From assembly GCA_002633005.1 (NCBI GenBank), contig NMRA01000659.1, forward strand, positions 158,419 through 222,418: a DNA stretch of 64,000 nt, in the 5' to 3' direction. The translations under genes were made by a program, and so were the position numbers. Positions 35,915-62,029 of the stretch are shown here, one piece after another. This stretch comes from Phoronis australis (Eukaryota > Animalia > Phoronida). Each line of letters starts with the position of its first letter. Position 1 is the stretch's first letter. Under the pieces are notes generated by a model that saw only the letters and a program-made list of their open reading frames with translations, was not told the DNA's origin and searched no databases.

Positions 35915-36020
35915 TAAGTTCACGATTCCAAGTTCATGACTTACTGTACGTGAACTTGAGAAATTCATTCCAAGTTCACTCAAGATTCCAAGTTCACTCA
36001 AGATTCCAAGTTCACGTACA
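35915..36020. repeat. 18-bp tandem repeats (ATTCCAAGTTCACTCAAG), related to the MITE at 55185
   Basis: Repeated ATTCCAAGTTCA motif shared with 55185-55373. Confidence 0.7.
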
Positions 36021-36480
36021 ACACGCACATCATAAGTGCCGAGCTATATACCAAAGACGTCTACTGTCTCTGGCTATACTAAGCAGAGATGTCGCTCGTG
36101 TACCGTGTTGGGTGATGTGATTCGATCATAGACATCTTAATTAAAGTGATGTCTATGGATTCGACCTTTCTACGAACAGCGAAAATCAGAGACGCGTTCC
36201 ACCTTTCGTTTGGTCTACAAGCTCATGACCATTGCGGGTTAGAAGTTGGTCAATTTTTAATAGAATCACAAGACGCGATGACTTCACTTTGTAAAATCGT
36301 GGTGCAATTTGCGCGTGACGTGTTTTCGTCTATTGACCCATATAATTATGTCGTCAACGAGTGACCTAGTTTACAGCGATAACAACGGAAGGAGGACCGT
36401 CTCGTTGAGTTGCACAAACGTAATCTCCTAGCTGAGTATGAAGTGAACGTTGCTGTCTTGATAGTGTTTAGATTGTCAAA

Positions 36481-39400: not shown

Positions 39401-42400
39401 CTGTACAACATCATCTGGTGTTAGGCAACATCATGGCAAAGATGAGTCGGCACATGGGTAAGAGTACACATGCCCTTAGAGGGGTGACACGTGTGAATGC
39501 AATCCCACATTGGCATTTGAGGTTCCCCTCAGCCGACACGAGTCTGATTATAACTGATCTAGAAAAGATTGATAACTGCTGAGGAATAGAGATAGGAAGA
39601 ATTGGTGAGAACTGTGGTCAAGATAGAATGTTTGCATTGACAAACTCCTAAGTGGAAAATGAAAGTTATATTGAAATATTTCTTGTGCACAGTGGCACTG
39701 CTTTTCCCAGAAGTAGCATCGCAGAAGCAGCGTACAAACTGAGCATAGGAAACAGCTGGTGGAAGTCTGTATAGTGATTCTGATATAGAAATCGATCGTC
39801 AAACTTTCATAATACAGTGGTGAAACTTTCAAAATGTAGACCTCTAGCTGCTGTAAAACTCTCGTCAGCCTTATGTTTAGAATATAGACTAATCCACTAA
39901 GTTTTTATGAATGGTAAAAAAATTGAGTAATCTTATTGAATCTGCTGGCTTCAGTGTACGCTAGTCGTGAAATTATTGTCCAATCAAAATAAATGGTGCT
40001 ATTTCCTTATGAACTTTCGACTTAAAGTCATTGCATTATAGTGCACTGTGTTACCTGCATGGTATATCCTTGTGAAAATTTAGTTTATTTTGAGGCATGC
40101 AATGGTGATAGTAAGACATCCATGTTTTCAGGAGGGCACTTCCGGTATTCTCTGTTTACATGTTTACATTAATCTTCTGTACTGTCATGATCTTGTGAGC
40201 TCCCCCCTATTGATTCAGAAATCATCCTCCAGATGTCGTTGTATTCCCTGAGAGCACTGAACAAGTCAGTGACTTGGCCAAGATTTGCTATGAACACTCA
40301 GCCCCCATAATTCCTTTTGGAGCTGGATCTGGCTTTGAAGGAGGAGTAACAGCACCTCACGTATGTTGGTATAATGTTATTTTGAGTTGATGGTTTTCCG
40401 GGCTAGAAATTATTAATGCCTGGGCCCATGGGCCAGGTTCATGAATATGTACATGTAGGTACTGTATAATGAATCAGAAAAGCCATATGCGATCAGTAGT
40501 GTTAATTTTATGGAATAAATAGTGACTTTGGTTCTGTTTTTCACTTTTTGATTTTAGCATCAATTGTTAAGAAGCCAACCATTGTTTCTTGTTTTTGTGA
40601 AACGTCCATGTTCATTGGGTCAGGTGATGTGACTAACAGGTGGCGTGCAGACCAGACTTAAAAATGTTTGTGATCAATGGGTTATGCTGAGTGGTTTGAA
40701 TTTGGAAGAGGCATAAACTCACATTCCGTAGGCCACGTTACTACAGATGTTAAATTGGTCTCAACTCGACCTTAATATTCAGCCGTCATCATGTGGCGAG
40801 ACGTTTGAGGTCAAAAGTTTGCTTATTGTGATGCTGTGAAAATCGACAACATGCTGTGAGTCCGCTCTAAAGTACTCCCGCTACACGAATGGGAAGCAGA
40901 ATTTATCAAAACCAGAAGTGGCTTCTTAGAATGGCTTTTGATGCCCGATATTATAGGATAATGTCATGTTTTTTCGTCTTTTAATACTACACCTGATTAT
41001 ATGTCGACTGACTAGATCTCAATAATATGATGCGCTAGTGTTGATCGTGCAAAGAACTGGCAGTTTACGCGTTATGTTTGCGTGCTATATTATCCAGGGT
41101 GGTGTCAGCTTTGACATGATCAAGATGGATCAAGTGTTGTCAGTTAATGCTGAAGACTTTGACTGCACAGTGCAGCCAGGTGTGACAAGAATTGGCATTA
41201 ATGAATACCTACGAGACACGGGGCTGTGGTTCCCTGTTGGTGAGTCACTGTGGTGTTTTCACATTGCGTAACCGGGCTTACTATCTTGTTATACGAGAGG
41301 CTTAAAGATGACAAACTGTTTTGAGAGCATACAGGGCATTGACTTGAAGTAGCTATGAACCCGGGTTCCATAAAAAAAATTACAAACTTTTGATTTTGGT
41401 CACTTTTGACTGTGACACTGGTCTTGACTGATTCCTTACTCAGATTAGAAGTGAGTTCTGGGTTTGCACAGGACTGATAGTTTGTTTCCTGAAGCCATGC
41501 TTGATGCGTAAAATGACACGGTGTGACCAGCCAACTTGTAGAGTCTGGTCTTAACCAATAACAAACTTACAGTTCTTTCAAAACCCAGAAGTCACCTCTA
41601 AATTGACACAGGAACACTTTGAAACTAGTTTCATTATAGTGGTGAGTGGTAAAAATATAACAAAAGTGATAAACAAGAAGACAGGTTTATGATCACTAAG
41701 TCTTTTAATTTCTGTTGTTTGTTGCTTTTGTTGAAATTCGTATTTATTTTTGAATTTCCACCACAACTTTGCTAAGACTAGACATTTGTAATAAAAACTT
41801 GTAAAATGTGACAGTAACTTAAGGTGACCTGAACTCTCTTTTGAGTGACTAACAAATTTTCTTCAATGTTTTTGGCGTTATGATTACTATGACAAAAGCA
41901 GGTTGTCATGCGACCAACTATTCACTGTAAAAATTGCCATGTGACCCATTTTCCCAGAATGCAACAAATATATTCAAAAACGGTATGTCAAGCTCTACAT
42001 CTAGCTTGTGTAGAGGTAAATATCCAACTCTCTCAGAAACTTATAATTCTACATTCCAATGATGATCACATAGTTTTCAAGCGACACAAGTCATGGTAGA
42101 TGTTGACAATGATGGCTGTCAAAAACAGATGAATGAACAAGTATGCAGAGTTGAGATCACTGGCATTTGATTGACAATGTTTGAGACTTTTCTGTCACAC
42201 TCATCAAACTTTTCATTGCAATATTCAAAATACAATTGTGCGTAGATTTTACTAGCACATTTAGATGTATAGTGTCCTTCAATTGGCCGCAACACATCTG
42301 TGTTGTAATAGCATTTTCATTAAACGTGATCAGAATGGAGTTCTGCAAGCAACACCCGTCGCATGCATACTTGAAAAAAGACGGCTCATAATGCAGGTAA

Positions 42401-45400
42401 CTGACAGGAAACCAACAGCGGCTGCGCGCAACCATCGTATTTGCCAAAGTGAAGTCCTGCCAACAACTTAAAATTTTAATTTTTTCACTACTAATAATTT
42501 TTTTACATTTCTGCAAGCGATGAAGTCGCTTCTGGGCTATTGGAAACCACAGTTATGTAAGAAAGCTTATTACACCAAAAACCGGATACAACATGCAGCA
42601 AATAAGACAGATGGCTAACAACAGGATCCGATGGCGTTCGGTCACAGAGACCCTATCCACCACGGGGTGGCAAGGGTTTTACTACGTTATTACACAAAAG
42701 TGAACTGGTGATTTCTTTGAATGTAACCTTTGACTCTAGATCCTGGGGCCGAGGCGTCGTTGTGTGGCATGTGCGCCACCAGTGCGTCAGGAACCAATGC
42801 GGTGCGCTATGGAACAATGAGGGAGAATGTACTTAACCTGGAGGTGGTCCTGGCAGACGGACGAGTAATTCACACAGCTGGCGAGGGCAGACGAACAAAG
42901 TATGTTGATTTCAAAGGAGGCTTTAATTGATTGAACATTGTTTTTGTTTGAGCAAATGATCTTAACACGAGTCCTCAAAATTATAAATCACCAATTTTTT
43001 GCCTATATAATGTCTTTCTGTTGAGGTTTCCCAGTTGTTTGACTGGGTGAGCGATGTTGCACAATGTAAGGATGCTTCATTTATGGAGTCGTGCTGATCA
43101 CTTTTAGGCTGCAAGAGAGCCATCAACGCAGCGTTCAAAGACATGCAAGCAAAAGTTACACTATAGCAGGTCATTAGTTCTGGCGGCTTGCCTAATTAGG
43201 AAACTCAAGTGTTTCCACATTACTGTTTTGTTACAGGAAGACGTCTGCTGGCTATAATCTGACCAATCTGTTTGTTGGGTCAGAGGGAACGCTTGGTCTC
43301 ATCACCAAGGCAACACTGAGGCTTGCTGGACAGCCTGAATCTGTACGTCGTATTCTTACACTGGAGCTACATTAAATGACAAGAAGTTTTGTGTTGGTTA
43401 GCTGGATAGGCATTTTTCTGCTTCTTGTTTATAAGATTGATTTGAGTCTCTAGCAAAACTCACAATTTTGGTGAGCTGCAGTTTTGCCGAATTTTGACAC
43501 AGATCAGTACATACTGAATGTCTACACAACATGATATCTTTGTTATAATGCATTTAATTGTTTCTTTATCTATTTCGAACCTCTTCTGGATGTTTTTTTT
43601 CGAAATCTTTCTAAAACATTTTGAGAAAACACTGGTTGCTGACTGATTGGCTCAACTAGTGATTGACATACACTCAAAAGTGGCCAAACATGGCTTCCTC
43701 CCAAGACTGGCTTAAGAGATTGTAATCATGAACAATTATGGACTTTCACAGTGGATCAATATGTTGGTTTTCCAATCCCAGAAATATGATAATGACCTCG
43801 ACTTGAGGTTTTGTTACTACTGCGTGTATAGATGATTGTTCTGAATCCATCTATTTTCTCGTTTTATTGTCTTACAGATAGTTTCTGCCGTGTGTCATTT
43901 TCCTTCCATTAAGGCTGCTGTAGACACGAGTGTACAAGTCTTGCAGTGTGGGGTACCTGTGGCGAGGATTGGTTTGTTATAAAACTTTTCTAAGTCTCTA
44001 TGTGTTGACAGTGTTGACCCATCTGTGAAACAAAAACGGAAGGGTTGCTGACCAAAAATTTTGACATCATTCTAAAGGATGCGAAATTCGATTTTGTAGA
44101 TTTCTTCCAAGCTTTCATTTTTAGCACAGTTTGAGTGTTGTTGAATGAAGGTTTAGAATGTATCATTCCATGCTCAAACACATCCTTCTAGAGCCACGTG
44201 GAAATTATGATGAAAGTTACCAAGGCCAAAAGGATCGCCTCTCAATCTTGCAAAGATTGAGCAGTGAAACTTGCTTTAAGTGCCTATATTTTACAAAGGT
44301 GATAAAGTTATTTTGATTGTCTTAGACTAGTTAGTTCGACACATCACCAAGGTGGAATACACAAAGCACTTTTTTAGAAAGACTGAGGAATGAAATCTTG
44401 TCTGTCAGATTGGTTCCTTTTGTCAAAGCTGTGGCAAAAGTTATGAAATAATCCAGAAATTATAGTTCTGTATCGTTCAATAAAAAATACTTGCACCTGT
44501 GATGTTTTTACACCAAAATGTGTTTCACTGATTTTCATTGAAAAGTGTTTCGATTTTTTTGTTGAAAAGTTCGCAGTTATAATTCAGTTACTAAATGCTT
44601 AGAACACGCTGGGTTTTAAGTCTGCACATTGACACATGTCAATTGTTATAGAGAAATTACTAACTAGTACAATATCAACTGTAAATATACCACATTGCTC
44701 TACATATAGTGTGTAGATCTACTAATCATCAGCTTACATTGATGCCCTAACTGGGGGTCAGACCATAGTCATACCTTGAGACATATCAGCCAATGGTACC
44801 ACTGATTTATGTACAAAGTCTTCTCTTGAGTTGAGTGAGTGTGGAATAGAATTTGTTTTTTTTTACTTTTTACCTATCTTACATTAATTATTTTTTAGTG
44901 AAGTGTGACAAAAAGTAAAGGCTTTATTCCTACAACAGTGGCAGTAACATGATCAAATTCCTGGATGGATGAGATATGACTTTCTGACGTCAGCTAAAGC
45001 TAACTCTGTTAAAATACTGGTTGCAGAATTACTGGATGAAGCTCAAATTGAAGCAAGCAACCGATACAGTAAGACGAACTGGGAGGTGAAACCTTCACTG
45101 TTCCTAGAGTTCCATGGAACACAGCAACATGCTGAGGATCAGGCTGTTGTCACCAGTGAGTTGCACAGTCATGTTTTTAACACTCATATACACGTACATG
45201 TGGCTGACTGCATAATTATTGTTAAATGTAATATTAACAGTTTTTCAATTTGAGAAAAAAATAATTGCTAAAATTGCCATATTTTTATTTTTCAGTGATT
45301 TACATTTAGTTGTTAGTGCAAACAGTCAAAATTTCACAAATTTTTGTTTCGTAATGGCTATGCCATGCCATACTAACCATGCTAAAAGCTAATTAAATTT

Positions 45401-47649
45401 TGGGTGCAAGTAAAGTTTTGTGAACAGATATTTTAGTTGAGAAAATTTGACTAAGTGAAATTTCACCTGCTGCAAACTGAGGAATGTTTACCATACACCC
45501 CATAGCACTTTGGTAAAGAATTCAGCATTAACAGCTAAACAGTGGCAAACTACCACAGTAAGCTTGACCAGGCTTGGTCATGTTTCGCTAAGTACTGTTT
45601 TGTTGCAGAGGAAATTGCTGAAATGAATGGGGGTGATGACTTCCAATGGTCGCATGACCTGGAAGAGCGTAATCGTCTGTGGAAGGCGCGTCACGAGTGT
45701 TGGTACGCGTGCCTGTCACTGAGAGCTGACTGTAAGGTTTGTGTTGTAACTAAACTGTCGATCAATGTTCACTGTGTCAGGGTCCTGGGACACCGTGTCA
45801 CCTGAGCTAGGAGACTTGTCTCGCACAAATTTGACGAATTTATCAGTTTGTGTGCTATTTAAAGATCTCTAGCCTTCATGTTTTGGATATGTTGAGAGAT
45901 TAATTTTTCATCTCTTGTTTATCATCGAAACTTGTCCATTTTGAGTGTTGTTTTTCATAGAAAATTGCACAAATAATTTCAATATTTCACTTGGCTTGTA
46001 GTGTCGGTGTGAGACAGTGGTGATGAGGCGCTTAAAATGGTGATGTGACTCTCTTGGAATGTTTCACTGAATTTTGGGCACACATTCCACAATATGCACA
46101 TGTACTAAAACTGTCGAATGTTTTCTTTAAATGCACATCATGGTTTGGCTTCATTTCAGGCAATTTCTACTGACGTTGTTGTACCAATATCACATTTGCC
46201 TGATGTGATTGTACAGACGCAAGAAGACATAAAGAATTTTGGGCTTACAGGTGAGCTGTGCACACTGTTATGAAGACATGCTTTGTGAGTAAACCGGCAC
46301 TTCTTAACCCATTTACATAACTTTTCATCAGACTGCCAGCTGTTCATGGCACAAATTGTTCTAGTGCAGCTGAGATGTTCTGTATAATTTTAACATCACA
46401 AGAGCAATTTGGGATCCGCTTGCTCTATGATGTTGCACAAATTAGTCAATAATTCGGCAGGGTTGCATAAGACTTAATCTTCAACAATTGCAATGTAACG
46501 CGTTTGCCTTGCCAATGCATTGTCATTGTTGCTATCCAGCATGGTGTAACATTGTTGCTATTCAGCATGATGTAACATTTATGTGAGGCCCTGGGTCTAA
46601 TCTCAAAATTATTTTTGGCAGTTTCATTTCTAATGTTTTGCTAACTCGAGATAAGTGTCTATTAGAATTCTGTGTTAGATTACACTATGGATCATGCATG
46701 TGACTGTGTTTCTAGTCCAAAATTGAGCTTGATTACAACTAGATTCAAAACTCGAGATTTCAGGTAATAACTTGAGGTTTTTAGTTCAAACCTTCAATGC
46801 TGAGGATTAGACAGTTATCCGCATAAACTATAATGTATATGAACACAGAATAATGCATTGTTATCTTGAATTTGCACAGACGTAGAGTGGAGAAATTGAC
46901 AAAAAAAAAAGATTTTGAGTACTAAGATTAAACCCTGAGGTAGCCATAATCAAATGTAGGACATGCAAAATGCAAACAGCTAGGTGCTGTCTGTAATCTA
47001 CACAGTGTAAAATGAACCAGTATCCTCAGGAAAGTCAACCGTAAAAGTACATGACTGTGCACTGTCAGATGACTTGCTGGCTCGTGTCATCATTTCGTGT
47101 ATTTTTTTCTGCATACAGGACCTCTGTTGGGACATGTTGGTGATGGTAACTTCCATGTTTTCCTTCAAGTGGACGTCAACAACAAGGAGGAAATGGAAAC
47201 TGCCCATTTATTTATTGACCGACTGGCTGAGTACGTACTGTACAGTAATGCTTGGGGGAGGGGCTTGAATTTGGATTGATGTAATCCTTGGCTTCTATAG
47301 CTCTGTTGACATTAACTCATTAGAAAAACTGCAATTTTGTGATGGTGTATTTATGAGGAAATTAATTCTTGTTTATATGTCTACTACAGGAATGATTTAA
47401 AATATAATTCATGGAGGAAAGTTTTCGTACCAGATGAAGATGTACCTTTGTATTGGTTTCATTTGCAGGAGAGCACTGGCTGTCAACGGAACCTGTACTG
47501 GGGAGCATGGGATTGGCTTGGGAAAGCGCCATCTGTTGCCAAAAGAGATTGGCGCTACTGGCTTAGAAGTGATGAAGCAAATTAAAAAAGCACTAGACCC
47601 TAAAGGGCTCATGAACCCTGGCAAGATTTTTTACTATGAGCAACAATAG
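36481..47649 (+). CDS. LDHD: Mitochondrial D-lactate dehydrogenase (FAD-linked oxidase family), complete, 12 coding exons, 503 aa
   Basis: GT-AG exons: 36481-36582 (transit-peptide-like [11 protein letters not shown]..., least certain), 39333-39457 (HGKDESAH), 40219-40360 (PDVVVFPES...[12 protein letters not shown]), 41098-41239, 42740-42899 ([27 protein letters not shown]), 43237-43342 ([17 protein letters not shown]), 43878-43971, 45027-45155, 45609-45736, 46160-46250, 47119-47230 (GHVGDGNFH), 47469-47649 (GEHGIGLGK...MNPGK). Total 1512 nt, in frame. Confidence 0.96.
37900..38738. mobile_element. Internally deleted Kolobok-like DNA transposon in LDHD intron 1
   Basis: Minus-strand frameshifted THAP (KRC.SGGCSNS...[15 protein letters not shown]...[13 protein letters not shown], about 38300-38500) converges on a plus-strand acidic ORF start at 37994 ([16 protein letters not shown]...[11 protein letters not shown]...[10 protein letters not shown]). 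Imperfect subterminal inverted repeat at about 37945-37970 and 38591-38619. CACT|TTAA end at 38738. Confidence 0.65.
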
Positions 47650-50231
47650 ATAAACTTGTTTATAAGGTAATTATCAACCTTCACATTCCCTATTTATCAA
47701 TTTTTTGGAATATCAAGATGGAAATATGAAACGAGAAATTTTGTAAGGATATCTCACATGTTCTATAGACATGACAAAATGTACGTTTTCTAGCTGATAG
47801 CAAAGTTTGTTTCAACTTTGGAGCAGAAAGTGTTTGTGTGATATTACCATGTTCTGGTTAAAGCAATAGACTATCCTCCACTGTTGTCTGTGATCGTGGC
47901 ATTGCATTATGGGATGCTTGCAGTGTTTGAAGAAACAAACTGCACATGTATACCGTTGCTGGTTGGACAGTGAAGACAGAGTAGACTCAGTAATGGGACT
48001 TGGTTACATACACTTTCCTTTTAGTTTGTATTTGCTGCTTTTGACTAGCATTATATAGCTTTGCATTGCCATTAAAAGACCCTTAATTAGCTATTAGCTG
48101 GCGGGAATTGAACTGTAGATTCGAGGCAGGGGCGGATCCAGCTTGTTGGTTTTCTGAAAGCGATTGTGTGATTGGTGTGTTCAAACATGAATCATCATAA
48201 ACAACAATAGTATGGCAATATAAACAGTAGAGTACAAAATTCAAAAGACTATTATTGATTAAAAATAAAAATAATTTCATAACGAAAAGCGCCAATGATT
48301 AAGTACAATAATCAAGATTCAGATTTCTTTCATGGTGTTTTGATAGCTGTGATAGCATGGACAAAGGTAGCCATCTATTAATGAAAACTACGTCGTGGTT
48401 AGTCTGGTCCCCCCCGCAATGAAGGTGCAATAGACCTTGTTTCTGTGTTCGGTTTTGGTTTGTTATCATTAACACTAGATGCTGGTGTTTACGAATATTG
48501 TGCTAAAACTTTGACAAAATGTGGTCTGTGAAATAAAGTGCTAAGTGAAGTCTCTTTAATTTTGGCTTTCCGTGTTTTTAACATGGTCACATGATTTGTT
48601 AGTTATATGGTGGAAATGCCTTCTTCTATTTAGTGTGTGGAATTTTCAAATAAAAGGTAATTTTAAGGAGTTTGTACTTCATTCACAAAGCGGCTATAAA
48701 CTTGGATTGTGTACATGAAACTAACTTTTGGTGTATACCACTTAACCTACAAAATTTGTTCCTTACTTGGATGAGAAGTGTTTGCTGACAATTCATGCTC
48801 GGAGAGTAAAGTGGTCGGTACCCTGTGATGAGTCTACTGGTAGATTATGGTCTTAAGCAACAACGACAGTCAGTTCTTTCCAAATCCAGATATTGTACCT
48901 ATTTTGACTAAAAAACATTTTGAAATCAGTTAACCCCCATAAGTGAGAGGTATCAGCATTTGCAACAGTCAAACTTTTGGAAAAATGGCGATTTCAACAA
49001 GTTTTGTCCACAGGTAAATCAGGTTGTGTACATGATGTATGTGTTCTCATTACAAACCTTGGTTTTCGTTGTAAAATAATGGGGGCATGTGGCTTACCGT
49101 GTAACATTGTTTTGTTTGCTGGCATTTTTAATGTAATATTAAATGTTGGTAATGCCCTTGAAATTTTTTGAAGGTACTAATAAATATTTAATTAAATTAT
49201 AATTTTTTTGTTCAAATTTGCCCATGGTCATCTGCTCGACTTCTTCACTTTTGATTGAGTTCGGAGATAAAATTCTAGATCCAGGTCACATTTCTAATCT
49301 GAGTGAGGAACAATTCAGTTGGTGGTCTATATAAAAAATGTCTTTTTGCAGCAGCATATGTGATGAAGCTTATCAGCTGGGAGAAACAACACGTCGGTGC
49401 AGATAATCATTTTATTTGTATTTCTAGAAGCAGGAACGGTGTAGATCTACATCAAAGCAGGAAATTGCGTCAAGAGTTTCATAATCCGATAGTCTTCCAG
49501 TCATTTTCCAATGGTAGTCTGTCCCGGTCTGTAATCGAATGAATGCACAAGGCAGTCGGTGACCTTAATAATGCGTAATATTTTAGCTGGCTGTCAATCC
49601 TGGCGACATTGCCAAATGTCACTTACGTGTAAATTGCATTAAGAATTATCTAACTCAACCTTTAACTAAGAAGAAACTAAATGCTACAAAGGGAATGATG
49701 ACGTCAGCACTGGAAACACATTCTTAGTTGCTCCTGCTGTCAATGAGAACGTGGGTGATTGGTCACGTGGGACCCGTTGGCAGTGGCCTCTAGAGGACAA
49801 CATAGGAATCGATTTATTGTTAGATGCCACCTGATGCGAAGAAAAGTACTTCCTGCTAGAGCCAGATGGCGATGAATCGCCGGTCCTATGTGATCAGCCC
49901 CCATTGCTTCTTGAAAAGCTCTCAATGGATTAGAATAACTTATAGCAGCTTGACTATTATCATTACAAAACATCTCAAGGCGAGCCATGAGTTTCATCTA
50001 CATTCACCTCACGCTCTGATTCGTCAGTGCATATCTTCGTTCTGCAGATACTTGGCAAGCTCCCTGGCCATTTCATCGTCAATCTCGTCCTCTGAAAATA
50101 CACTCTTGATTTGAGCTCTTGATGAATGGAATTATTTTTTCACTGTTCGTGTCCGTGAACATATTGGCTGGGGTTGGAATGTTTCACAAGTTAGTTTCTA
50201 ATTTTGTTCCGTTTTATTTTCACGTTTTGGC

Positions 50232-50609
50232 TTTAGGCCTACTGAGTTATGGTTATGAATATTCGGTTTTATATTTTTCCCTGAAAAACTAAAACAAATA
50301 TCAAAACCTATCAAGTAATATGTAAATAACTTGTCAAAAAAACTTAAAACTCAAGTTTAACCTTACTTTGCTACACTTCACTGGCTGCCTTTTCTTAGCC
50401 GCCATCTCGTGGCCGGATCAGTATCCCTAGTGTCTGAAGCTTTAAACTATACTGAACAGCTGAGGCAAATGTTTCATTTCTCTTATAAAAAATTGGTATT
50501 GAAGTTCACAAATTTTTATACTGATAGAAACAACTATGTTCGGCCGTTCGGCATTATTTGTACGCTAACTGATCGGATAAAACGGGCAAGTGTTTTAGGT
50601 GTGATCCCT
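50232..50609. repeat. Copy 1 of a ~377-bp near-identical direct repeat (copy 2 at 54434-54810)
   Basis: Identical to copy 2 apart from about 5 small differences. Confidence 0.92.
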
Positions 50610-53317
50610 GTTGTATATCTTGACCATAGAGGTCGCTAGCAGTCCAGTTTTCGAAATAAAGTTCTGTATCGGAACTCACGACGTTTTTGTTGGCTGCTTA
50701 ATGAAGCAAACTCAACATATTGGCGACGAGTTACGGAACTGAAACCCAGGATTTGGAGAATTAGGACCTGTCTGCACGTAATTTGCGTGAAATGACGATT
50801 GTTGGTGCTACCAATGGGTAAATTTTGACTGAAACCTGTTTCGTGAAAACTCACACTTGAGCGTGGTGCTTCATTTCTGTACGTTGTTTATTGAGCCCCA
50901 GACGTGCCTGGATTTCTGGGCCAGACAAGTTATATACATTGTAACTGGTAATATGGCTGGTAAAATTGGAAAAATAGACGTATTTGATGAAACAGTAGAG
51001 ACTTGGTGTGCATACAAAGAACGTTTAGATCAATATTTCATTGTGAACGATATTTTTTTCTTCGGAAGAAAGTAAATTGGTCCCGGCATTGTTGAGCCTA
51101 ATAGGTGCAAAAACATATTCGTTACTGAGAGATTTGACATCTCCAGCCTTGCCGTCAACTAGAAGTTACCATGATTTATGTACTATACTTGAACAACACT
51201 TGGCACCGAAGCCATTGGTTATTGCAGAACGGTTCAGGTTTCATAAGCGGGATCAGCGCGAAGGGGAAGGAGTTCTAGAATTTATCGCTCAACTCCGAAA
51301 GCTCAGCACTTACTGCGAATTTGGTGCAAGTTTGTCAGATACCATTAGGGACAGGCTAGTTTGCGGTCTAAGAAATGAGGAAACACAAAAGGAACTTTTG
51401 AGTAAACAGGACTTAACCTTAGCTAAGGCACAAGAAATAGCGGTCGCCATGGAAGCCGCGGCTCGAGACGCCGTGGAATTGCAAAAAAGTACGTCTGTAA
51501 ATAAAGTAAGCTCGACACGTGAGACCACCGCGCGCGAAAAGTCACGCGCGAAAGAACAGGCCCATAATTTTGAGGCCTCAAGGGGTTGTTCTCGATGTAA
51601 TAATAAAAACCACGATGCGAACTCTTGTTTCTTCAAAAACGCAAGGTGTCACAAATGTCATAGGGTCGGACACGTGAAACGCGCCTGTCGTAGCGCAGGA
51701 ATGAATGCGCTAGACAGCGATTCGGATAACGGAAGTAACTTGGGGGTGCTAGATACTATTGAGATCAATAAAGTTTCAGTCGATGACATCATATGGGTAC
51801 ATGTCGAAATTGAAGGCAAGCCATTAGCAATGGAGCTAGATACCGGGGCGAAAGTCTCTGTTATATCCAAGGGGGATTACGACAAACTTATCACAAATAA
51901 ATTGCGTAAAAGCAGCAAGCGTTTGAGAACATATTCCGGTGAGAGTATCACTCCGCTAGGCGTAGCACGCGTAAAGGTGCGTTACGATGAACAGATCGCG
52001 GCAGTTGATTTATACGTGACCGAAAATGGTGGGCCGCCCCTCTTCGGCAGGGAGTGGATAAGAATGTTTCGAATGAGCCCAGAGGATGTAAAGCGCGCAT
52101 TTGGCTTAGGCGAAGATAACGTCAAGGTGCTGAACGAACAGTGCATTACCCAATCAGCTCCTGACCATGCCATCGAGAAAGTTAAGGCCCTTTGTGAAAA
52201 ATACAACGACGTATTCAGTCCGGATCTAGGAACATTAAAACAGATTCAAGCGAGTGTTAAACTAAAGGAAAATGCACAGTCAAAATTTTGTAAAGCCCGC
52301 CCAGTGGCATATGCTATGAGACCAAAGGTTGAGCGCGAGCGTGATAGACTTGTAGAGACAGGAGTGGGCCACGCCAATTGTACCAATTTTAAAGAAAGAT
52401 GGATCCAGCGTGCGACTATGTGGCGATTTCAAAGTGACTATCAACCCGGCTCTAGAAATAAGTAAATATCCATTACCACGGGTAGAAGACATCTTCGCTA
52501 CACTCGCAGGGGGGCAATACTTTACAAAATTAGATTTGAAGAACGCATATCTTCAAATGGAAGTGTGCCCGGAGGACCGTAAATTCCTTACCATTAACAC
52601 TATGAATGGATTATACCAGTACAATCGCCTTCCATTTGGAATAGCATCAGCGCCGGCAATATGGCAAAGAGCCATCGATCAGGTGTTACAGGGTATACCC
52701 AACACCCAGGTCATGCTTGATGATATCATCATAACGGGAAAGTCAACTGAGGAACACCTGGATACCATTGAAAGAGTCCTTAAACGTTTGCAAGAATATG
52801 GTCTCAAGGCAAACTTAGACAAATGTGATATGTTCAAATCGAGGATTAGCTACTGTGGACATGAACTTGATAAGCAAGGTCTTCATAAGACACAAGAGAA
52901 AATTGACGCTGTAGTCAACGCACCTTGCCCCAAAAATGTGAGCCAACTCCGATCGTTTCTCGGATTAGTAAATTACTACCGCAGTTTTCTGCCAAACGCG
53001 TCCTTGGTTCTGGCGCCCTTAAACAAGCTACTGCAGAAGAGTACTATATGGAAATGGTCTGCAGACTGCAGTCGCTCGTTCGCGGAAGTTAAAAGGTTGA
53101 TAACTTCGGCTCAGGTTCTCACCCATTATGACCCGGAAATGCCCATTCGGTTAGCTTGTGATGCAAGCAAAGAAGGTCTAGGTGCTGTTCTCTCACATAT
53201 CATGAGTGATGGAAGCGAACGCCCGATAGCGTTTGCCTCCAGATCGTTGAATTCAGCCGAGAAGAATTATTCTCAAATAGACAAGGAGGCATTGGGAATT
53301 ATGTGGGCAGTAAAAAA
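50609..53317 (+). mobile_element. Ty3/Gypsy LTR retrotransposon (Mag-like), defective, truncated by the assembly gap
   Basis: Short 5' LTR TG...CA at 50609-50717 containing AATAAA. PBS TGGCGACGAG at 50721. gag-pol follows. Confidence 0.93.
50953..53317 (+). pseudogene. Gypsy gag-pol (Gag with two CCHC knuckles, aspartic protease, RT, RNase H), two frameshifts
   Basis: MAGKIGKIDVFDE...; CSRCNNKNHDANSC and CHKCHRVGHVKRAC; ELDTGA; RLCGDFK; LPFGIASAPAIWQ; MLDD; ACDASKEGLGAVL...AEKNYSQIDKEAL. Frameshift at the T-run near 51055 and a deletion near 52362. Confidence 0.9.
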
Positions 53318-53755
53318 NNNNNNNNNNNNNNNNNNNNNNNNNNNNNNNNNNNNNNNNNNNNNNNNNNNNNNNNNNNNNNNNNNNNNNNNNNNNNNNNNNN
53401 NNNNNNNNNNNNNNNNNNNNNNNNNNNNNNNNNNNNNNNNNNNNNNNNNNNNNNNNNNNNNNNNNNNNNNNNNNNNNNNNNNNNNNNNNNNNNNNNNNNN
53501 NNNNNNNNNNNNNNNNNNNNNNNNNNNNNNNNNNNNNNNNNNNNNNNNNNNNNNNNNNNNNNNNNNNNNNNNNNNNNNNNNNNNNNNNNNNNNNNNNNNN
53601 NNNNNNNNNNNNNNNNNNNNNNNNNNNNNNNNNNNNNNNNNNNNNNNNNNNNNNNNNNNNNNNNNNNNNNNNNNNNNNNNNNNNNNNNNNNNNNNNNNNN
53701 NNNNNNNNNNNNNNNNNNNNNNNNNNNNNNNNNNNNNNNNNNNNNNNNNNNNNNN
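53318..53755. other. Assembly gap (438 N)
   Basis: Run of N. Confidence 1.
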
Positions 53756-54433
53756 TTTAGTGATCTGTGACATGTATTGAATCATATGGAATTGGTTTTG
53801 TGTGGTACCTCGAATGTATGTGCTAGCTCATTTTTGGGGGGTCCTTTTTTGGTTTCTGCCGGACCCATTCCAGAGTGCAATTTGTCTGTCATGGGTCATT
53901 TGGTGTTCAGTGCGGTACTATTGTTCGTTTAAAATCAGTTTTGGCCGGTACCTCGAAAATCTAGTCTAGCTCAAATTTTTGATGGCATACCATGGTTGAG
54001 ATTTTTGGGGGTTTCTGCCGGGCACAACCCAGAGTGTATTTTGTCTGTCATAGGGGTTTTAGTGATCTGTGACATGTATTGAATCACATGGAATTGGTTT
54101 TGTGTGGTACCTCGAATGTATGTGCTAGCTCATTTTTGGGGGGTCCTTTTTTGGCTTCTGCCGGACCCATTCCAGAGTGCAATTTGTCTGTCATGGGTTA
54201 TTCGGTGTTCAGTGCGGTATTATTGTTCGTTTTAAATCAGTTTTGGTTGGTACCTCGAATATCTAGTCTAGCTCATTTTTTGGGGTCTTTGTAAGGCCCC
54301 CAGGGGTCACACCCAGAGTGCAGACAACGGCAGACGTCCATTTCTGTACATACTGAGGTGGACTTTAAATACTCCCGTGGTCAGATGTTGGTACCTCGTT
54401 CATCTATGCTAAGTGCTCTGGGCTGCCGGTCTA
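53756..54433. repeat. Satellite-like tandem array, 302-bp unit built from two ~150-bp subunits; probable HINE-like element end
   Basis: TTTAGTGATCTGTGACATGTATTGAATC at 53756 and 54058. Recurring GGTACCTCGAA, CTAGCTCA and CCAGAGTG blocks. Confidence 0.8.
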
Positions 54434-54810
54434 TTTAGGCCTACTGAGTTATGGTTATGAATATTCGGTTTTATATTTTTCCCTGGAAAACTAAAACAAA
54501 TATCAAAACCTATCAAGTAATATGTAAATAACTTGTCAAAAAAAACTTAAAACTCAAGTTTAACCTCACTTTGCTACACTTCACTGGCTGCCTTTTCTTA
54601 GCCGCCATCTCGTGGCCGGATCAGTATCCCTAGTGTCTGAAGCTTTAAACTATACTGAACAGCTGAGGCAAATGTTTCATTTCTCTTATAAAAAATTGGT
54701 ATTGAAGTTCACAAATTTTTATACTGATAGAAACAACTATCTTCGGCCGTTCGGCATTATTTGTACGCTAACTGATGATAAAACGGGCAAGTGTTTTAGG
54801 TGTGATCCCT
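54434..54810. repeat. Copy 2 of the ~377-bp direct repeat
   Basis: Matches 50232-50609. Confidence 0.92.
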
Positions 54811-55184
54811 ACGAATGTTAACAAAAAAGCTTATAAGAATAATCGCAATAAGGGTGATGATGGCGATGATAATGAATAAAGTATAACAAATGAAATTGTA
54901 ATCATCTTTCAGTTGACCGTATGAACCCATATACACTTCCGGTGTGAAAATGAAATGTTCACCCGACATGATACGTGATGGGCAAAATACCCACCCGAAA
55001 AGATGCTCAAAAGGAAAAAGGCCAACGGTGAAGACAAAATACCCGGCCGAGCTTGGTCATGGTGGCGAAATACTACATGAGGTTGTGGCACGTCGCTAAC
55101 AACCTCTCTCTAATGGAAGAACCCTCCCCCCCGGCATGTTGATCTCTCGTTGCAATCTTGGTCGTTCGTGGTTGAGTCGGCGGT

Positions 55185-55373
55185 TGTTGTACTTCAACTT
55201 GGAATCATGAGTGAACTTGGAATACGTTTCTATTCCAAGTTCACGTACGGCCGGGGGTTTGGCAGTTTGCTTAATCTCAAGATCACTTGGTTGATCTTGG
55301 AATTCCAAGTTCACGCAACACTCACTTCTGCTTATTCCTGAGATTAAGCAGGATTCCAAGTTGAAGTACAACA
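55185..55373. mobile_element. MITE with 22-bp perfect terminal inverted repeats
   Basis: TGTTGTACTTCAACTTGGAATC (55185-55206) and GATTCCAAGTTGAAGTACAACA (55352-55373), with internal (A)TTCCAAGTTCAC repeats. Confidence 0.75.
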
Positions 55374-55458
55374 GCGCAGGCGATGCCAGGGAATTAAAAG
55401 TGGTCAACAGGTGACGTGCAGACTAGACTAAGATGCTGTGCTGTACAACTGCGGCGAT

Positions 55459-58227
55459 TTAGTTACCTAATCCCCTTGTGTCTTCGTTGAGTTGCGCGGC
55501 CTCGTCGAGTAGTTCGGCCTTGTCTTTAGCTGTGGAAGGAGGCAGTAACAATATTGCGATTACTAATTAAAAAGTCTGTCCAGCAGCATGATTTGCCAAT
55601 TGATGCAGGCCTAATCTCATCTGATTTAGTGATTACCACGTATTGCGTTCCCTAAAGGGCCTGCTACTACCCCTAATAGTTATACTCAAAACTACCCCTA
55701 TAGTATCGCCGTCGTCAATTCATACAGAGAAGTTGGGTCTTCGCGGGTTCTGCTACTGAACCGTGCACTCACGACCCGGTCAATTTTATTTTGAGTGTGC
55801 AGAGTAGTTAGAACTCCATGGTCTCTTCAAATGTTTGTTTGACTAAGCATTAGTTTTCAAAACCTGATAATTATTTACCGAATCCTTCCGGTTCCCTCAT
55901 GTATCGAAGCACCGTTTCCTTTTCGTCAGCTGGAACGTACTTCAGGATCGCCTGGTAATCTTCATCGGTCAACTCGGACAACTTAAATGATAAAAAGGGA
56001 TAAGCACACAGCCACGTAAAGTTTGCTCATGACAGGAACTTAACTCTGAATTATTTATCTAGTGTACCCTGTGTCTGCACTATAAGCGCCACAGTTTCTC
56101 CTAACGTACGATTGGCCGGGGACTGAAAACATGTAAAGTGACATGTCGATATCATTTAACCGTTGCACGACGGTAGGGTTGCAGACCAAATGCGAATCGG
56201 CCTTTGTTGAAAGCAACGCTGATCATAAAGTTATCCTCCTAAATATGGCGTTGAACGAAAAAGGTGTGATAAAAAACCTGTTCTAGTCGAAATCTGATGT
56301 CGTTGGATTGATCTGCGTTAAATTTTTGTTTACTTCATCGGTCTTCACAACCTAATGAACTATAAGCGGAGTAAACCCACTTACTTATCCGACTGCCGTA
56401 CAGCCTGAAAATGTGTTAACAGAGCCGTGATTATTCCCATGTAATTGTTTTCATTAGATGGTCAAAAACCCACAAAGGAGCGTATTTCAGACAATGTAAT
56501 TATTCTTGAGCATTGTAATTTTGGTAAGAGACAGATACAGGTTCTCTCAATTCGTCGTCATGCTGTCCTGGCAAACAAGGACACCGCGCGCTTGTAAGGT
56601 TGAAGCGCCCAGTCTCGGACTGCCGCTGGGAAAGATGGGGCTCCCGATGGTTAGGTTTTTGTTATCAGGGTGGTTTATTCCGTGACATCTCCAGTCGACT
56701 GTCATATCCCTAAATTTGTTCTTCTTTGGTGTCACAACTGATAATGACCACCCGGCCGGAAAACTATCAAAATGAATTTGAGACAGGAATAAATTGCTTA
56801 CGATTGTAGACGTCAAAAATTGACATTCATTGCAACAGAGAGTTTTTTAAAACTCTCTGTTGCAATGAATGTAAGCAGCCCATTAAAATGGGCTGCTTAC
56901 ATTCGTAACCCAAAGTAGCCATAAGACACTGAAATCCGGTAGATGTCTCCAGATGCCACTTGGTGACTGGACCCGCCAATAAATCAAAGAAATGCGTTAC
57001 ACTCACAAGACCATCCCCAAAAAGACCGTGTGAACAGGCGTTAAATATAATTACCTCTTTCTTCCCGACTAAGACCGTGCAGCCTGCTTTTTTCAAGAGA
57101 CTGAAATCAAAGCGAAATAGAACAGTAATGGCCGTGACCGTTTTAGTTGTGTTAGACGATTTGGTCACGGAATTAGAAAATAATAAATGATCTACTCCCC
57201 GCTTCACGTCTCTGACAAACTTGGCAAACCAATTTAGTTAAAATGTGTTTCCAAATAATGGTTCTTCAAATATGATAAAATTTTTAAATGAACATAATTT
57301 TAAGGGACTGCACCCGCCATCCGTTACTTTTTAATTAGACTACTTTCCGCTATAAATCTCAGACTGGTATTTGATTTGTTCCTTACTCGGCCATGGAAGA
57401 ACTGGCGGCTCGTTTTCACTTGAAATCAAGTTTGTGTGTTCGGCTTCTCATTTCAAGAGCCAGTAAGGAACATTTGAGACAAACTGTCTAACGGAAACTG
57501 GCCTTTTAAGTTCAGTAGTATTTTTTTAACGGTCAAATAGGGGGTTTATTACTGCTTAAAGCGGTTTTGAATTTCTGGCGATGCATCCATTGGGTCCCAC
57601 AGAAAAGACATTGAACTGATAATTAATAGTAACAAGAGTAAAAGTATTCAGGTCTATGATTTATCAAGTGTTCTTTAGACAACACGTTTCGGGGTTTGAT
57701 AGAATCTCACCAATTTCGGACAAAACTGATTACTGGTCCTACACCACAGCTATGAATTATTGTTTGAATATTTAGGGGGTCAATTTCAACGGGACCACCC
57801 AAGGGATAACAAAAAGTGTTAATGACCGTCTTACTACACAAATAACAGTTTCTACGTTGAAGTAAATCAATTTTAGTAATACTGCTCCGTTAGAGCCAAT
57901 TTTGCAAACAGAGAAATTAAAAACATGTCTGTTAGGCTGTCAAGGTATTCTTAAGGGCGTGTCATTTTCAAATAGCTATTAAGATAGCAAATACTTGTGA
58001 AACTTTACCGATGACTATCTATACACATTGTTTCACACTCGTTGTAGTAATCAAGATGTTCACGTTTGAGAGCTTGGAACTTACTAGTTTTTTGCCGCTC
58101 GCTTAATCCAAATGCGGTGGCGCCTCCAGGCCCTTCGAACTCTGAAGCGAATACGCCAGGCGTCGCTCTCCAGCACTACGCTCAGCAGTACGGTTAGCAC
58201 GAGAAAGGCGACTATAGCCTTGTTCAT
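55459..58227 (-). CDS. Putative antimicrobial/host-defence peptide precursor, 120 aa, 4 coding exons (signal peptide, cationic Trp/Arg peptide, GKK, acidic propeptide)
   Basis: Exons 58085-58227 (ATG; acceptor at 58237/8), 57055-57100, 55879-55981 and 55459-55529 (stop), all GT-AG and phase-consistent (2,0,1). Translation: MNKAIVAFLVLTVLLSVVLESDA-WRIRFRVRRAWRRHRIWIKRAAKNYLLKKAGCTVLV-GKK-ELSELTDEDYQAILKYVPADEKETVLRYMREPEGFAKDKAELLDEAAQLNEDTRGLGN*. The C-terminus is uncertain because a donor-like GTAACT at 55466 could add a further exon. Confidence 0.82.
56823..56904. other. Two overlapping perfect palindromes (24-bp and 18-bp stems, 2-nt loops)
   Basis: ACATTCATTGCAACAGAGAGTTTT-TT-AAAACTCTCTGTTGCAATGAATGT and GAATGTAAGCAGCCCATT-AA-AATGGGCTGCTTACATTC. 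Confidence 0.92.
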
Positions 58228-59902
58228 CTTGATTCAGCTGCAAATAGCAAGAACACAATGATGGCGTCAACGAAGACGTCGAAGATGAACATGATGGTGA
58301 CTATAATAATGAACAGAAAGTAGTATGATAACAGCTACACATTATTATAGTTATGAAAGAGTAACCATGATGCGCATTCAAAGGCGGTTCATGAGCGTGA
58401 CTGTTGTGGTTGACTTCCTTGGCGTCTTCGACCGATTGGGTGGGAGGCTATCGTCAGCAAAAATGCGATCTTTTAAAAGGATCTCTTTACGTGGCATTAT
58501 TTTGCAAGCGTCGGAATGCATGCGAATTAATGACGATCTCAAGATTTGCTCTTTTGTTCTTGTTTCATGTGAGACATGTCGCTTGTCAATAACTTCAATA
58601 AAACAACACGTCTTTTCAGCGTAACGTGTATATTATTCTAAAACACTCGACAAACAAGAACATTTACACAATTTGAAGATGTTCTTTCCTTTATCTTCAT
58701 CAATTTAGAACATAAAACAGCAATTGAAGGGTATGGTTAAAATTACCTAACATGTACATCTTTATTTGTTCTTTTTTCTCGCGGTTTTTGCTACCGACTT
58801 TTGAAAAAATGTTATTCAGCGTCATTCTGCTGTGGCAGTTATTTTGTTAGTGCTCTATAAAAAAAGTGTTTTTAAGCAATTGAAATTTAAAACATGAATT
58901 CCTTCAATTATATTCTACTCATGAGGAGTTCAAAACTGCGTGAAAATAACAATTAATTATGTTAATACTATTTTACCATGTGACAAAATATTATACACCT
59001 GTAAAATAGTTAATGTTGCCATCTGCTCTAGCAGAGAGGCACATGTGTGCTATTTGTCCAGCTGAGCTCATTGTAGTTTTAAAAGTATAAATTGTTTTGT
59101 TGCTTATGAACATGCCGCTATGATTTTGAAAATACTTTTGTCGAAAGACCATCAGGTGGGAATACGTTGCGTAAATTGTTTTGAGCTATTAAAGCAAGAA
59201 GGATATGTTTGTAAAAAAGTGTGCAATTTTATATTTTTTTTCTGATCAATATGGTACGTACAGTCTCAATGTGACAGCCTTAAAGTGAAACATATCAACA
59301 CGTTTTTTGTCCATTGTCAAAAATTAATTGCCTGTTTGTGTCCCTTTTGTGCATCAGTGCGCGTTTGTATACGTGTTTGAAAGTCTCTAAGTGGCAAGGA
59401 GAAAAGTTTTAATTGGCTCAATGCGTTTTTGTCGCTGTGACGCTTATTTTACTCGAATCGCTACCTTGTTTTAAAATACAAAATTTAATGCAACGACCTA
59501 GAAAGATGCAACGGTTACGGTACTTTTTTTCAAAAAATGAGATTAAAAAACAATAACGAATGCAATAGTATATTAAATGATACAGACTTAACGTTGATGA
59601 TCTGATGCACATTGATTCAGTTTCGCTAAACGATACGCGCGTTCCAAAAACCCATCTTTGAATAGTAAGGTGTGGGTAATAGACCAGCCCATAAACTACA
59701 GGGTGGAAAATAATTTTAGAATAATAATTCGTGTGGCTCAAAACAGCTAACTTTAACTAATTAGTAATGTCAGCGGAGCCTTTGTCAAACACTCGTCTGC
59801 GCAGGGCTCCGAACAGTAAACCAGTAAACCCAATTAGAGTCTTTGGTTTAAAGAGCCTAAGTTGAAATAAATAAATAAATCTCACACAAGTCAAATACTT
59901 AC

Positions 59903-59984
59903 GGTGTCCTCAAGAGGATACTGTGAACAACCAAAAATCTTCGTTAGATGACAACCAGACTGCATCTCACTCCCCATTTTTATA
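59903..59984 (-). promoter_or_regulatory. TATA box and short non-coding first exon of the peptide gene
   Basis: TATAAAA on the minus strand at 59978-59984. Strong donor ACC|GTAAGT at 59903/59902, about 80 nt downstream. The coding exon has an acceptor that needs an upstream exon. Confidence 0.6.
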
Positions 59985-62029
59985 GAGTTTATGGCGAGCG
60001 TTCGTGTGGGAAAGAGGACGCGGAGCTCACGACTTTTTGTATTGAAGTCGTGATGATATCCAGTGGAGCTGCAAAGTAGACAAATTATGGTTTAATTTTA
60101 CAGACTACTTTTGATCGTGACATGGCAAGTAAAAAGGTGAATTGATTCTTTTCATACAACACATCTTTGCAATAAACACGAAGAAAGGTCTTCGATAACA
60201 ATAGGGAAACACTATTTTTTATTACGCGAGTTAGTGTATCGAAATTACACACATAAACGATATTTCTGCAATGATGTAACGATGCCTTCTATACACGCAC
60301 GTTATGGTTTTAGAGCAGTCACGGCTTGGAACCAAGGATTCCCCATTGTCGAAGTCACGATTTCCACTGAATAGACATCCTTATTGTTTGTGTAGATGTT
60401 TTATAGTGTAACAGTTCTGAATACGCCAACTCAGGCAACATTTATTTTTATCGTGTAAATCCATTTGCATGCTCTGCAGCCCCTTACAGCAATGTGCGTC
60501 GATTTTTTCCAGTAAGTGTTACTTGAATGTGTCGATGCAGCGCCCTGCTTTCTGATGAGGTCCTGTAACCTTTGTACCGGTCTTACACACTTCGTCACCC
60601 ACTCCAGTGTATAGTAACAACTCAAGGGGACGCTGAATAGATTTCCAAATATCGTGAGCACACATTCTATACTACAACAATTTATATGTTCACTTCGTAA
60701 ATTATACAAGACGAATACTGCTTTTATTTAATTTCTCTATTTCAAATCACGAGAGAGAAATTTGTGGTAAAAACTGGTAATTTCATTGTTTTGTATCGCA
60801 CATGTTAGTTATCTGCGTGAACCTCAGTATTTTTTACATTTCTCTTGTCGTGATCTGCTAACAATCAAATAAAGCCTTTAGGTAATCTCAGCGTTTGAAA
60901 AAACATCCAACAATGAGGATATTTTAAACGATTCTTTGGTGTTTGGATCTTCAAGGGAGTGTTTTTTTTTCATTTTGGTTATCAATTGCATGTATGAAAT
61001 CTATTCTTATCATTACTTTTGAGGGATATCTAAAAATAATCCTATTGCTTGAACAGGTTCAATTTACAAGTAACGACATGATCGTGTCTTGATGTAAACA
61101 GCAAGAATAGCTTAGTTTTTTTGATACTACAAAAAATCCTTTATTCGTTCTTTCACCCAATTATGATTTTACTAAGTGTCGTGACTACCAAATTACCTAA
61201 TTACTGGGATGTGTAAATTAATATCATATGACTAGGCTGTTAGACTTACCATCACTTCAGATTTGTTGATGGGACCCCGATCAAATTCTCTACCGTTCAT
61301 CAATCTGTGAAGTTGTTTTTAAGCGATTACATTTCAGTTACATAATGCATGCCTCCGAACATCAGTTGTAACCACAAACTCTCTGAATCGGGAGGCTAAC
61401 TTTGGCTTGTCCAAAGAAATACTGATGTACACATAATGTCACCTTTTTCTTTAAATCTCAAACGTTAATCATCTCAATCAAGAAGAGCTTGTATCAATAA
61501 TAATGTACTGACTTCTGCGAAATTCTGTTTCACAACCGTTAAAACGTTGCTGATTAAAAATACACCCTTTTGTAACCCGTGCGTTTATGCAGTGGTAGCA
61601 TTTTTGATTCATTTTATTGTGCTGAGACAATATAGAAAGGCTAGTCTGAGGATGGTCGCCTCCGATCTAGCCTTTACAAGGTAGTAAGTTTATATTTAGT
61701 CAACATGTAAGGAGCAATATATGTAACTTGATGGGGAAACGGGACGGGGGTAAGACTTTTATAGTTACATGATTCCCCACAGGGTGGCGATATGATTGAT
61801 CGTTGCAGAGTATTGCTGTGGTGCGAGGGGGATTCTTAGCACGTGACTTCTCACTGTTAGCTTAGAACAGTCTAACATTCGGACATTCTGATGTTGAGAA
61901 ATACCACAAGCATACTGTGTGCTGTCTAGTTTAGAAATGCTGTTGAAACTTGCCGCTTCTGCAACAAGAACCAACTAAATCGGTGCTAATTTCTATCGTT
62001 GGCCAAATAGGTGAACGTTATGCACGTAA

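Follow-up and report, generated by a model that had tools for sequence, protein, structure and literature searches.

Gene structure

The 64,000-nucleotide stretch of Phoronis australis contig NMRA01000659.1 analyzed here, referred to throughout as the window, contains on its minus strand a spliced invertebrate gene that is likely to have a few close relatives in a small family and whose product is a predicted secreted prepropeptide with a Trp/Arg-rich segment that is likely a membrane-active antimicrobial peptide (AMP). The multi-exon coding gene is genuine. The model covering 59950-55459 holds five exons, all four introns are bounded by GT..AG, and the coding introns lie in phases 2, 0 and 1. 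A preliminary description of this locus had placed a TATA box and an untranslated exon upstream, and both are present: the putative TATA box, TATAAAAA, lies at 59984-59977, and exon 1 (59903-59950, 5’ end approximate) consists of 5’ untranslated region (UTR) only, is covered by read-bases of RNA run X3 and ends in a donor at 59903 that ranks 6 of 270 GT sites. Exon 2 (58085-58237), bounded by the acceptor ranked 1 of 259 and the donor ranked 2 of 270, carries the ATG at 58227 and encodes a predicted signal peptide of 23 amino acids (aa) and the cationic peptide as far as its residue 24, up to a phase-2 donor. Exon 3, only 46 nt long (57055-57100), completes the cationic peptide, including its single Cys, continues with Gly-Lys-Lys-Glu and closes with a phase-0 donor; an in-frame alternative donor is located at 57007. 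The acidic propeptide is divided between exon 4 (55879-55981, phase-1 donor), which is covered by two divergent transcript types, and exon 5 (55467-55529), whose acceptor is used in three reads and which has a candidate donor at 55467. Read-through past 55467 takes exon 5 to a stop at 55461-55459 and results in a 120-aa form.

Splice sites were ranked by a matrix for which 10 donors and 11 acceptors served as training set, all taken from the neighboring D-lactate dehydrogenase-like (LDHD) gene. The later splice sites of the peptide gene score lower (acceptor ranks 7, 56 and 68; donor ranks 59 and 19), and this small local matrix favors donor 57007 over 57055, with scores of 6.8 and 2.2. A weak matrix score does not exclude a splice site, because the weakly scored pair 55879/55529 occurs in reads. 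Among the 301 ATG frames in the window that are open for at least 40 aa, a signal-like core occurs in 10 and a cationic stretch behind that core in 3 of the 10; the peptide gene ranks first of the 301 on both features, and the other two frames that combine them form a single open reading frame that runs antisense to LDHD. The window was found to contain no second copy of the peptide gene. Two features of the introns were also recorded, namely a C/EBP-like palindrome in intron 1 (59167-59174; a simple pattern match only) and nested short palindromes (50 bp and 38 bp long) within the intron that follows exon 3 (56823-56904).

RNA evidence and related transcripts

RNA of the same species, comprising three raw runs (X1, X2 and X3) and one contig set (X4), was mapped onto positions 54200-60800 at 92% likeness. 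First mates fall on the plus strand over the exons, which fits minus-strand RNA. The junctions proposed in the preliminary description fared unequally in these data: the joint 55529/55879 (CT..AC) is present in three reads of run X1, which derive from a related transcript, whereas 58085>57100 and 57055>55981 are without reads of the window copy. The X1 spliced reads (type A) differ from the window copy at ~8 sites, so that they stem either from a paralogue or, as is possible for type A, from an allele that has diverged. A further transcript (type B), to which X2 and X3 each contribute up to nine reads, spans a portion of exon 4 and carries other differences. Since types A and B differ from each other, at least two related transcripts exist, and the locus is probably part of a small expressed gene family.

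The differences listed for exons 4 and 5 number 12 and fall in 10 codons. Seven of these 10 codon changes are silent, and the three amino-acid changes listed (L>I, T>V and E>D) are conservative. The silent share expected is 25%, and for the differences listed the excess corresponds to P values of 0.004 when codons are counted and 0.015 when sites are counted. The acidic tail is under purifying-type, coding-type conservation.

Type B also bears on the choice of donor for exon 3. Nine X3 reads of this type have a loose end at 55957, the alignment runs on until exon 4 begins, and hand translation of the loose end finds five of eight residues identical in exon 4. Immediately upstream of exon 4, type B reads Arg-Asp where exon 3 of the window ends in Lys-Glu, with 4 of 6 nt alike, compared with 1 of 6 nt each for the intron and for alternative donor 57007. 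Homology with type B supports the junction 57055>55981 over the use of 57007. At the 5’ end of the gene, X3 contributes 119 read-bases to the bin that holds 60 nt of exon 2, about 73 to the UTR-exon bin and none between; this depth would fit two reads spliced 59903>58237, starting at the exon 2 acceptor and falling below the listing threshold. An X4 contig over 58124-58383 was considered as evidence of expression and rejected, as it is unspliced and may be DNA.

Precursor layout and processing sites

The translation displays the layout claimed for it, in which a signal peptide is followed by a cationic peptide, a Gly-dibasic site and an acidic tail, and the claimed composition was matched residue for residue: the 36-mer contains 9 Arg, 4 Lys, 3 Trp and no Asp or Glu, and the 58-aa tail of the 120-aa form contains 16 Asp/Glu against 7 Lys/Arg (net charge -9, pI 4.2). 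The predicted leader has an uncharged hydrophobic core, with an 11-residue hydropathy of 3.3, and ends S-D-A. The predicted 36-aa peptide carries a net charge of +13, has a pI of ~12 and consists of 50% hydrophobic residues; it also holds one His and one Cys (Cys55) and no Pro. This single unpaired Cys55 could link two chains by a disulfide. An AlphaFold model of exon 2 alone, computed without an alignment, gave one helix (pLDDT 79, pTM 0.39) and is uninformative.

How would the peptide be released from its precursor? The Gly-dibasic amidation signal of the preliminary description is present as G-K-K, but the peptide also contains internal basic sites at R29-V-R-R32 and K42-R43, and RVRR and KR are more canonical convertase sites. 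For this reason, the amidated 36-mer is one candidate product among several, and cleavage at R29-V-R-R32 or K42-R43 could yield shorter ones.

End of the protein

The exons of the preliminary description, their GT..AG boundaries and the open frame all stand, but the 120-aa end that it assigned to the protein probably does not: the model is correct over the first 118 residues and probably incomplete thereafter. The rationale for this statement begins with the donor at 55467 (TAG/GTAACT), which lies just ahead of the 120-aa stop, scores 5.4 and ranks 17 of 270. A probable exon 6 is located on the minus strand at 50024-50091, with a phase-1 acceptor (TTTTCAG), 22 encoded residues of which nine are Asp or Glu, and a stop at 50026-50024; a candidate poly(A) signal, AATAAA, occurs on the same strand at 49813-49818, ~206 nt past that stop. 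Only 4 of the 4003 terminal-exon candidate frames in the window contain at least 35% Asp/Glu, and exon 6 is the sole one on the minus strand and fits in phase. No AATAAA was found on the minus strand from the 120-aa stop to 50892 in the sequenced part of that interval, which has a 438-N gap inside it. The exon-6 form is a 140-aa precursor with a 78-aa tail containing 25 Asp/Glu and 9 Lys/Arg, and the net charge from residue 24 to the end shifts from +6 in the 120-aa form to -1.

Points that count against the longer form are as follows. The junction 55467>50091 is without supporting reads, with exon 6 lying outside the RNA-mapped stretch, which reached 54200-60800 only. Exon 6 weakly resembles the start of exon 4, a borderline result in which 477 of 10,000 shuffles score as high. 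The 120-aa form is possible because another AATAAA, at 50218, would sit ~1 kb past its stop if the insertion described below were absent. Weighing these observations together, a precursor of 140 aa is considered probable in preference to one of 120 aa. The depth bin that holds 55467 is shared with a transcribed repeat at 55232-55373; a small element with 25-bp inverted ends, at 55185-55373, occurs in other transcripts and is related to sequence near 35946-36023.

Without its insertion, the probable last intron would measure ~1173 nt. The insertion zone (50232-54810) consists of a 378-bp direct duplication (50232-50609 and 54434-54810, 98.4% identity) that flanks three things: a broken gypsy-type retroelement on the plus strand, a run of Ns (the N gap, 53318-53755) and a further repeat. 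The retroelement (50609-53755) gives an aspartyl protease match, has its gag-pol region split over several frames and enters the N gap; we take 50609-50717 to be an end resembling a long terminal repeat (LTR), with a primer-site-like motif after it. The 378-bp duplication was considered as a pair of LTRs and rejected, as the LTR-like end begins at 50609, where the duplication ends. The duplication may instead reflect two haplotypes or two tandem copies merged in assembly; if tandem copies were joined, exon 6 would belong to the sister copy, and the gene plan of the family would be unchanged.

Searches for relatives

Homologue searches were run exon by exon rather than with the spliced protein. 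Because the queries were single exons of 20-47 aa, sensitivity was lowered and distant relatives could be missed. In a 5.8-billion-protein set made up of longer proteins only, exon 4 with its flanks returned no match from one candidate, and exon 2 none from 21 candidates. The best ESM Atlas value was 0.79, with no usable match, the PDB searches returned 0 and 0 matches, and Pfam gave none at threshold for the four of five coding exons scanned, the 46-nt exon being left out. Among metagenome contigs, exon 6 had no exact 30-nt match. A HMMER search with exon 4 against 1.84 billion representatives produced three matches with E values up to 0.001, which were rejected as unrelated stretches of long repeat proteins. 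No description of this peptide family was found in the literature searched, which was without subscription papers, supplements or APD3/DBAASP. The view that the sequence belongs to no recognizable named family is borne out, with single exons as queries, across protein, family and structure searches. The sequence family appears to be new and the precursor design familiar.

Neighboring genes and lineage

The LDHD-like gene lies on the plus strand at 39333-47652, where 11 coding exons were traced to an open frame, first exon(s) excepted, and exons resembling fucose kinase/pyrophosphorylase lie on the minus strand at about 9375-17267, recognized through sub-threshold Pfam matches. Identity to the last LDHD exon stays within 82% for all database proteins, and the best named full match is that of the brachiopod Lingula, at 78% over 55 aa. 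An LDHD tree of 24 rows places the window on the side of Lingula, rotifers, an oomycete and unnamed rows, separated from a crinoid and vertebrates by a 97/98 split. Because this tree is sparsely sampled and its named rows include no tunicate, mollusc, annelid or cnidarian, we infer rather than establish from it that the lineage of the window is probably spiralian. Elsewhere in the window, a large inverted duplication at 18952-23537 (19145-20909 versus 21484-23252 at 82.6%, outer arms at 92.7%) is likely a foldback or nested repeat.

Comparison with known peptide systems

The window gene has the sequence features expected of linear cationic AMP prepropeptides with a C-terminal anionic propeptide, namely a predicted signal peptide, a cationic and partly hydrophobic peptide (+13), a basic site (G-K-K) and an anionic tail (-9 or -16, depending on the form). 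An anionic tail is also carried by styelins and clavanins.

Among the closest known systems are the myticalins and modiocalins of mussels. Myticalins have the same tripartite plan with a Gly and dibasic site (PMC5577615), and the two mussel families share with the window gene a first exon that is 5’ UTR only, an ATG near the start of exon 2, a 23-residue signal, an Arg-rich cationic peptide (23-42 aa with pI >11 in mussels) closed by Gly and a dibasic site, an anionic C-terminal extension (35-75 aa in mussels) that is cut by a phase-1 intron, and membership in a multigene family with a conserved tail (PMC5577615, PMC12294457). However, the window gene has 5 or 6 exons with coding introns in phases 2, 0 and 1, whereas a myticalin gene has three exons and one phase-1 coding intron; introns here fall inside the peptide (phase 2) and just past the cleavage site (phase 0), whereas myticalin exon 2 holds the signal, peptide and dibasic site together (PMC5577615). 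The propeptide site is Lys-Lys here and Lys-Arg or Arg-Arg, often after Gly, in myticalins; the type B paralogue read carries Arg ahead of an acidic residue at the position where the window copy has Lys-Lys. By hand comparison, the signal matches the myticalin consensus at 4 of 18 defined positions at an equal length of 23 (PMC5577615), and the window peptide, with one Cys and no Pro, is unlike myticalins in both respects. Its exon plan and signal consensus place the gene outside the myticalins and modiocalins; myticalins are described as restricted to Mytiloida (PMC5577615, PMC12294457). As regards the anionic extension, exon 4 had no accepted match in the protein sets searched, which may or may not include myticalins. 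Very few linear cysteine-poor AMPs of molluscs are listed in PMC12294457. The mussel myticalin type is the nearest described analogue on the host’s probable side of the tree.

Piscidins of fish such as epinecidin-1, which has an anionic C-terminal prodomain, likewise join a signal, a cationic peptide and an anionic prodomain proposed to neutralize the peptide, and they share with the window gene a TATA box and a comparable exon number, four or five in piscidins (PMC6879556). Epinecidin-1 differs from the window gene in its 67-aa precursor, 20-aa prodomain and His-rich +5 peptide (PMC6879556). The neighboring LDHD gene lies outside the vertebrate clade and exon 2 has no Pfam match, which set the window gene apart from piscidins. 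Among tunicate peptides, halocidin and dicynthaurin are linear peptides dimerized via a single disulfide, and the window peptide has one Cys near its end; halocidin begins with Trp, as the window peptide is predicted to do, but the tunicate dimers are built of 18+15 and 30+30 aa rather than 36-mers, there is no sequence match, and a dimer here is conjectural (PMC10608444). Botryllin, with a 158-aa prepropeptide, a 23-aa signal and a 37-aa mature peptide of ~+11, is near the window peptide in size and charge, but the KHK motif of styelins and botryllin is absent from the window peptide (PMC9966394); judged by this motif, the peptide falls outside that family, whose other mark is an identity of over 30% to styelins. 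Hedistin, which comes from a marine worm (a polychaete), is linear and amidated and contains Trp, as is predicted here, but it has 22 aa with two bromotryptophans, and the likeness concerns the peptide only (PMC10608444, PMC11767717). None of the annelid AMP families covered in PMC11767717 matches the window gene; in particular, no BRICHOS occurs in the exons scanned, and the precursor is too short and its peptide N-terminal, all unlike the BRICHOS-linked annelid AMPs.

Discussion

The best reading of the locus, considered likely, is a new lineage-restricted family of linear cationic antimicrobial prepropeptides. In the model proposed here, signal peptidase would cut after Ala23 and expose an N-terminal Trp. 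With exon 6, the acidic tail would reach 78 aa and a net charge of -16, nearly cancelling the +15 of the peptide and Lys-Lys, and this charge cancellation would leave the stored pro-form neutral and inert. A proprotein convertase would then cut after Gly-Lys-Lys (Lys62), and carboxypeptidase trimming followed by PAM amidation at Gly60 would yield a peptide of charge +13 and at most 36 aa with a C-terminal amide. The freed peptide, which might be shortened at its internal basic sites or dimerized through Cys55, would bind anionic microbial membranes and permeabilize them.

Antimicrobial function is the best inference for the peptide, but several observations weigh against this reading. The amphipathicity of the peptide is not above that of shuffled sequences (2583 of 5000 score as high for the helical moment and 301 of 5000 for the beta moment), and as a convertase site Lys-Lys ranks below the internal RVRR and KR. 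The window copy is scarcely expressed, with ~2 reads on exon 2 in one of the three raw RNA runs, exon 3 has zero depth in both bins holding the 46-nt exon in 4/4 runs, and the spliced type A reads are those that diverge from the window copy. The variants behind the conservation of the tail come from 40 of 67 rows and from reads at least 92% alike only. Finally, simple patterns detected no NF-kB-like site from 58237 to 61500.

An alternative hypothesis is that the peptide serves as a cytolytic secretion of mucus, skin or gland, directed at predators or prey and not at microbes. Linear peptides of scorpions and spiders combine a signal, a cationic peptide, a Gly-dibasic site and an acidic tail, so that the precursor logic is identical to that of linear cytolytic peptides; however, there is no sequence match, expression in the three RNA runs is low, and an Arg/Trp-rich peptide of unremarkable amphipathicity would fit selectivity for anionic membranes better than strong hemolysis, and we regard this hypothesis as unlikely. 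A similar ambiguity of layout applies to a neuropeptide or hormone precursor with one amidated 36-aa ligand, since a peptide placed right after the signal and closed by Gly and a dibasic site is a neuropeptide layout too. We know of no neuropeptide motif that the C-terminus of the peptide fits, a net charge of +13 is atypical, no Pfam match at threshold was obtained for the coding exons scanned, and related transcripts map to the acidic tail and not to the peptide exons, which is the reverse of what conserved ligands show. Neuropeptide screens do make use of the G[KR][KR] motif (PMC8557429), but a ligand precursor is judged very unlikely. The least credible proposal, which we also regard as very unlikely, is a structural or adhesive secreted polyampholyte (egg coat, tube, cement or mucus coacervate) whose cationic block would pair with its anionic one: the two blocks are in near-exact charge balance in the 140-aa model, but the sequence has no repeats and no Tyr/Ser/Gly/Pro bias, and the short precursor carries an amidation-type site.

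A separate possibility concerns the window copy and not the family: within a genuine family, this copy could be a duplicate that the inserted retroelement has disturbed and that is decaying or silenced. The insertion between exons 5 and 6, the ~2 reads compared with up to nine per run for paralogue type B, the weak Lys-Lys where the paralogue has Arg ahead of an acidic residue, and the many such pseudogenes described in myticalin families (PMC12294457) all point in this direction; nonetheless, the frame and splice sites are intact, a TATA box is present and some X3 coverage looks spliced, and decay of the window copy is considered improbable. A bolder version of the antimicrobial hypothesis holds that an AMP family of a non-mussel, probably spiralian lineage may have extended its acidic propeptide exon by exon, as the likeness of exon 6 to the start of exon 4 would suggest, until it cancelled the +15 almost exactly, and that the product is a disulfide dimer or a pair of peptides from one precursor, one of them rich in Trp/Arg and 18 aa long, the other amidated and carrying the Cys. 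This version is doubtful, albeit less so than the rival explanations above.

For a specialist, the precursor design itself is unsurprising. Similarity searches miss peptides of this kind owing to their short length, their division among small exons and their restriction to particular lineages. Should the peptide prove active, it would represent a new +13 Trp/Arg-rich natural lead, and its family would allow testing of whether the length of the acidic propeptide tracks the charge of its cargo.

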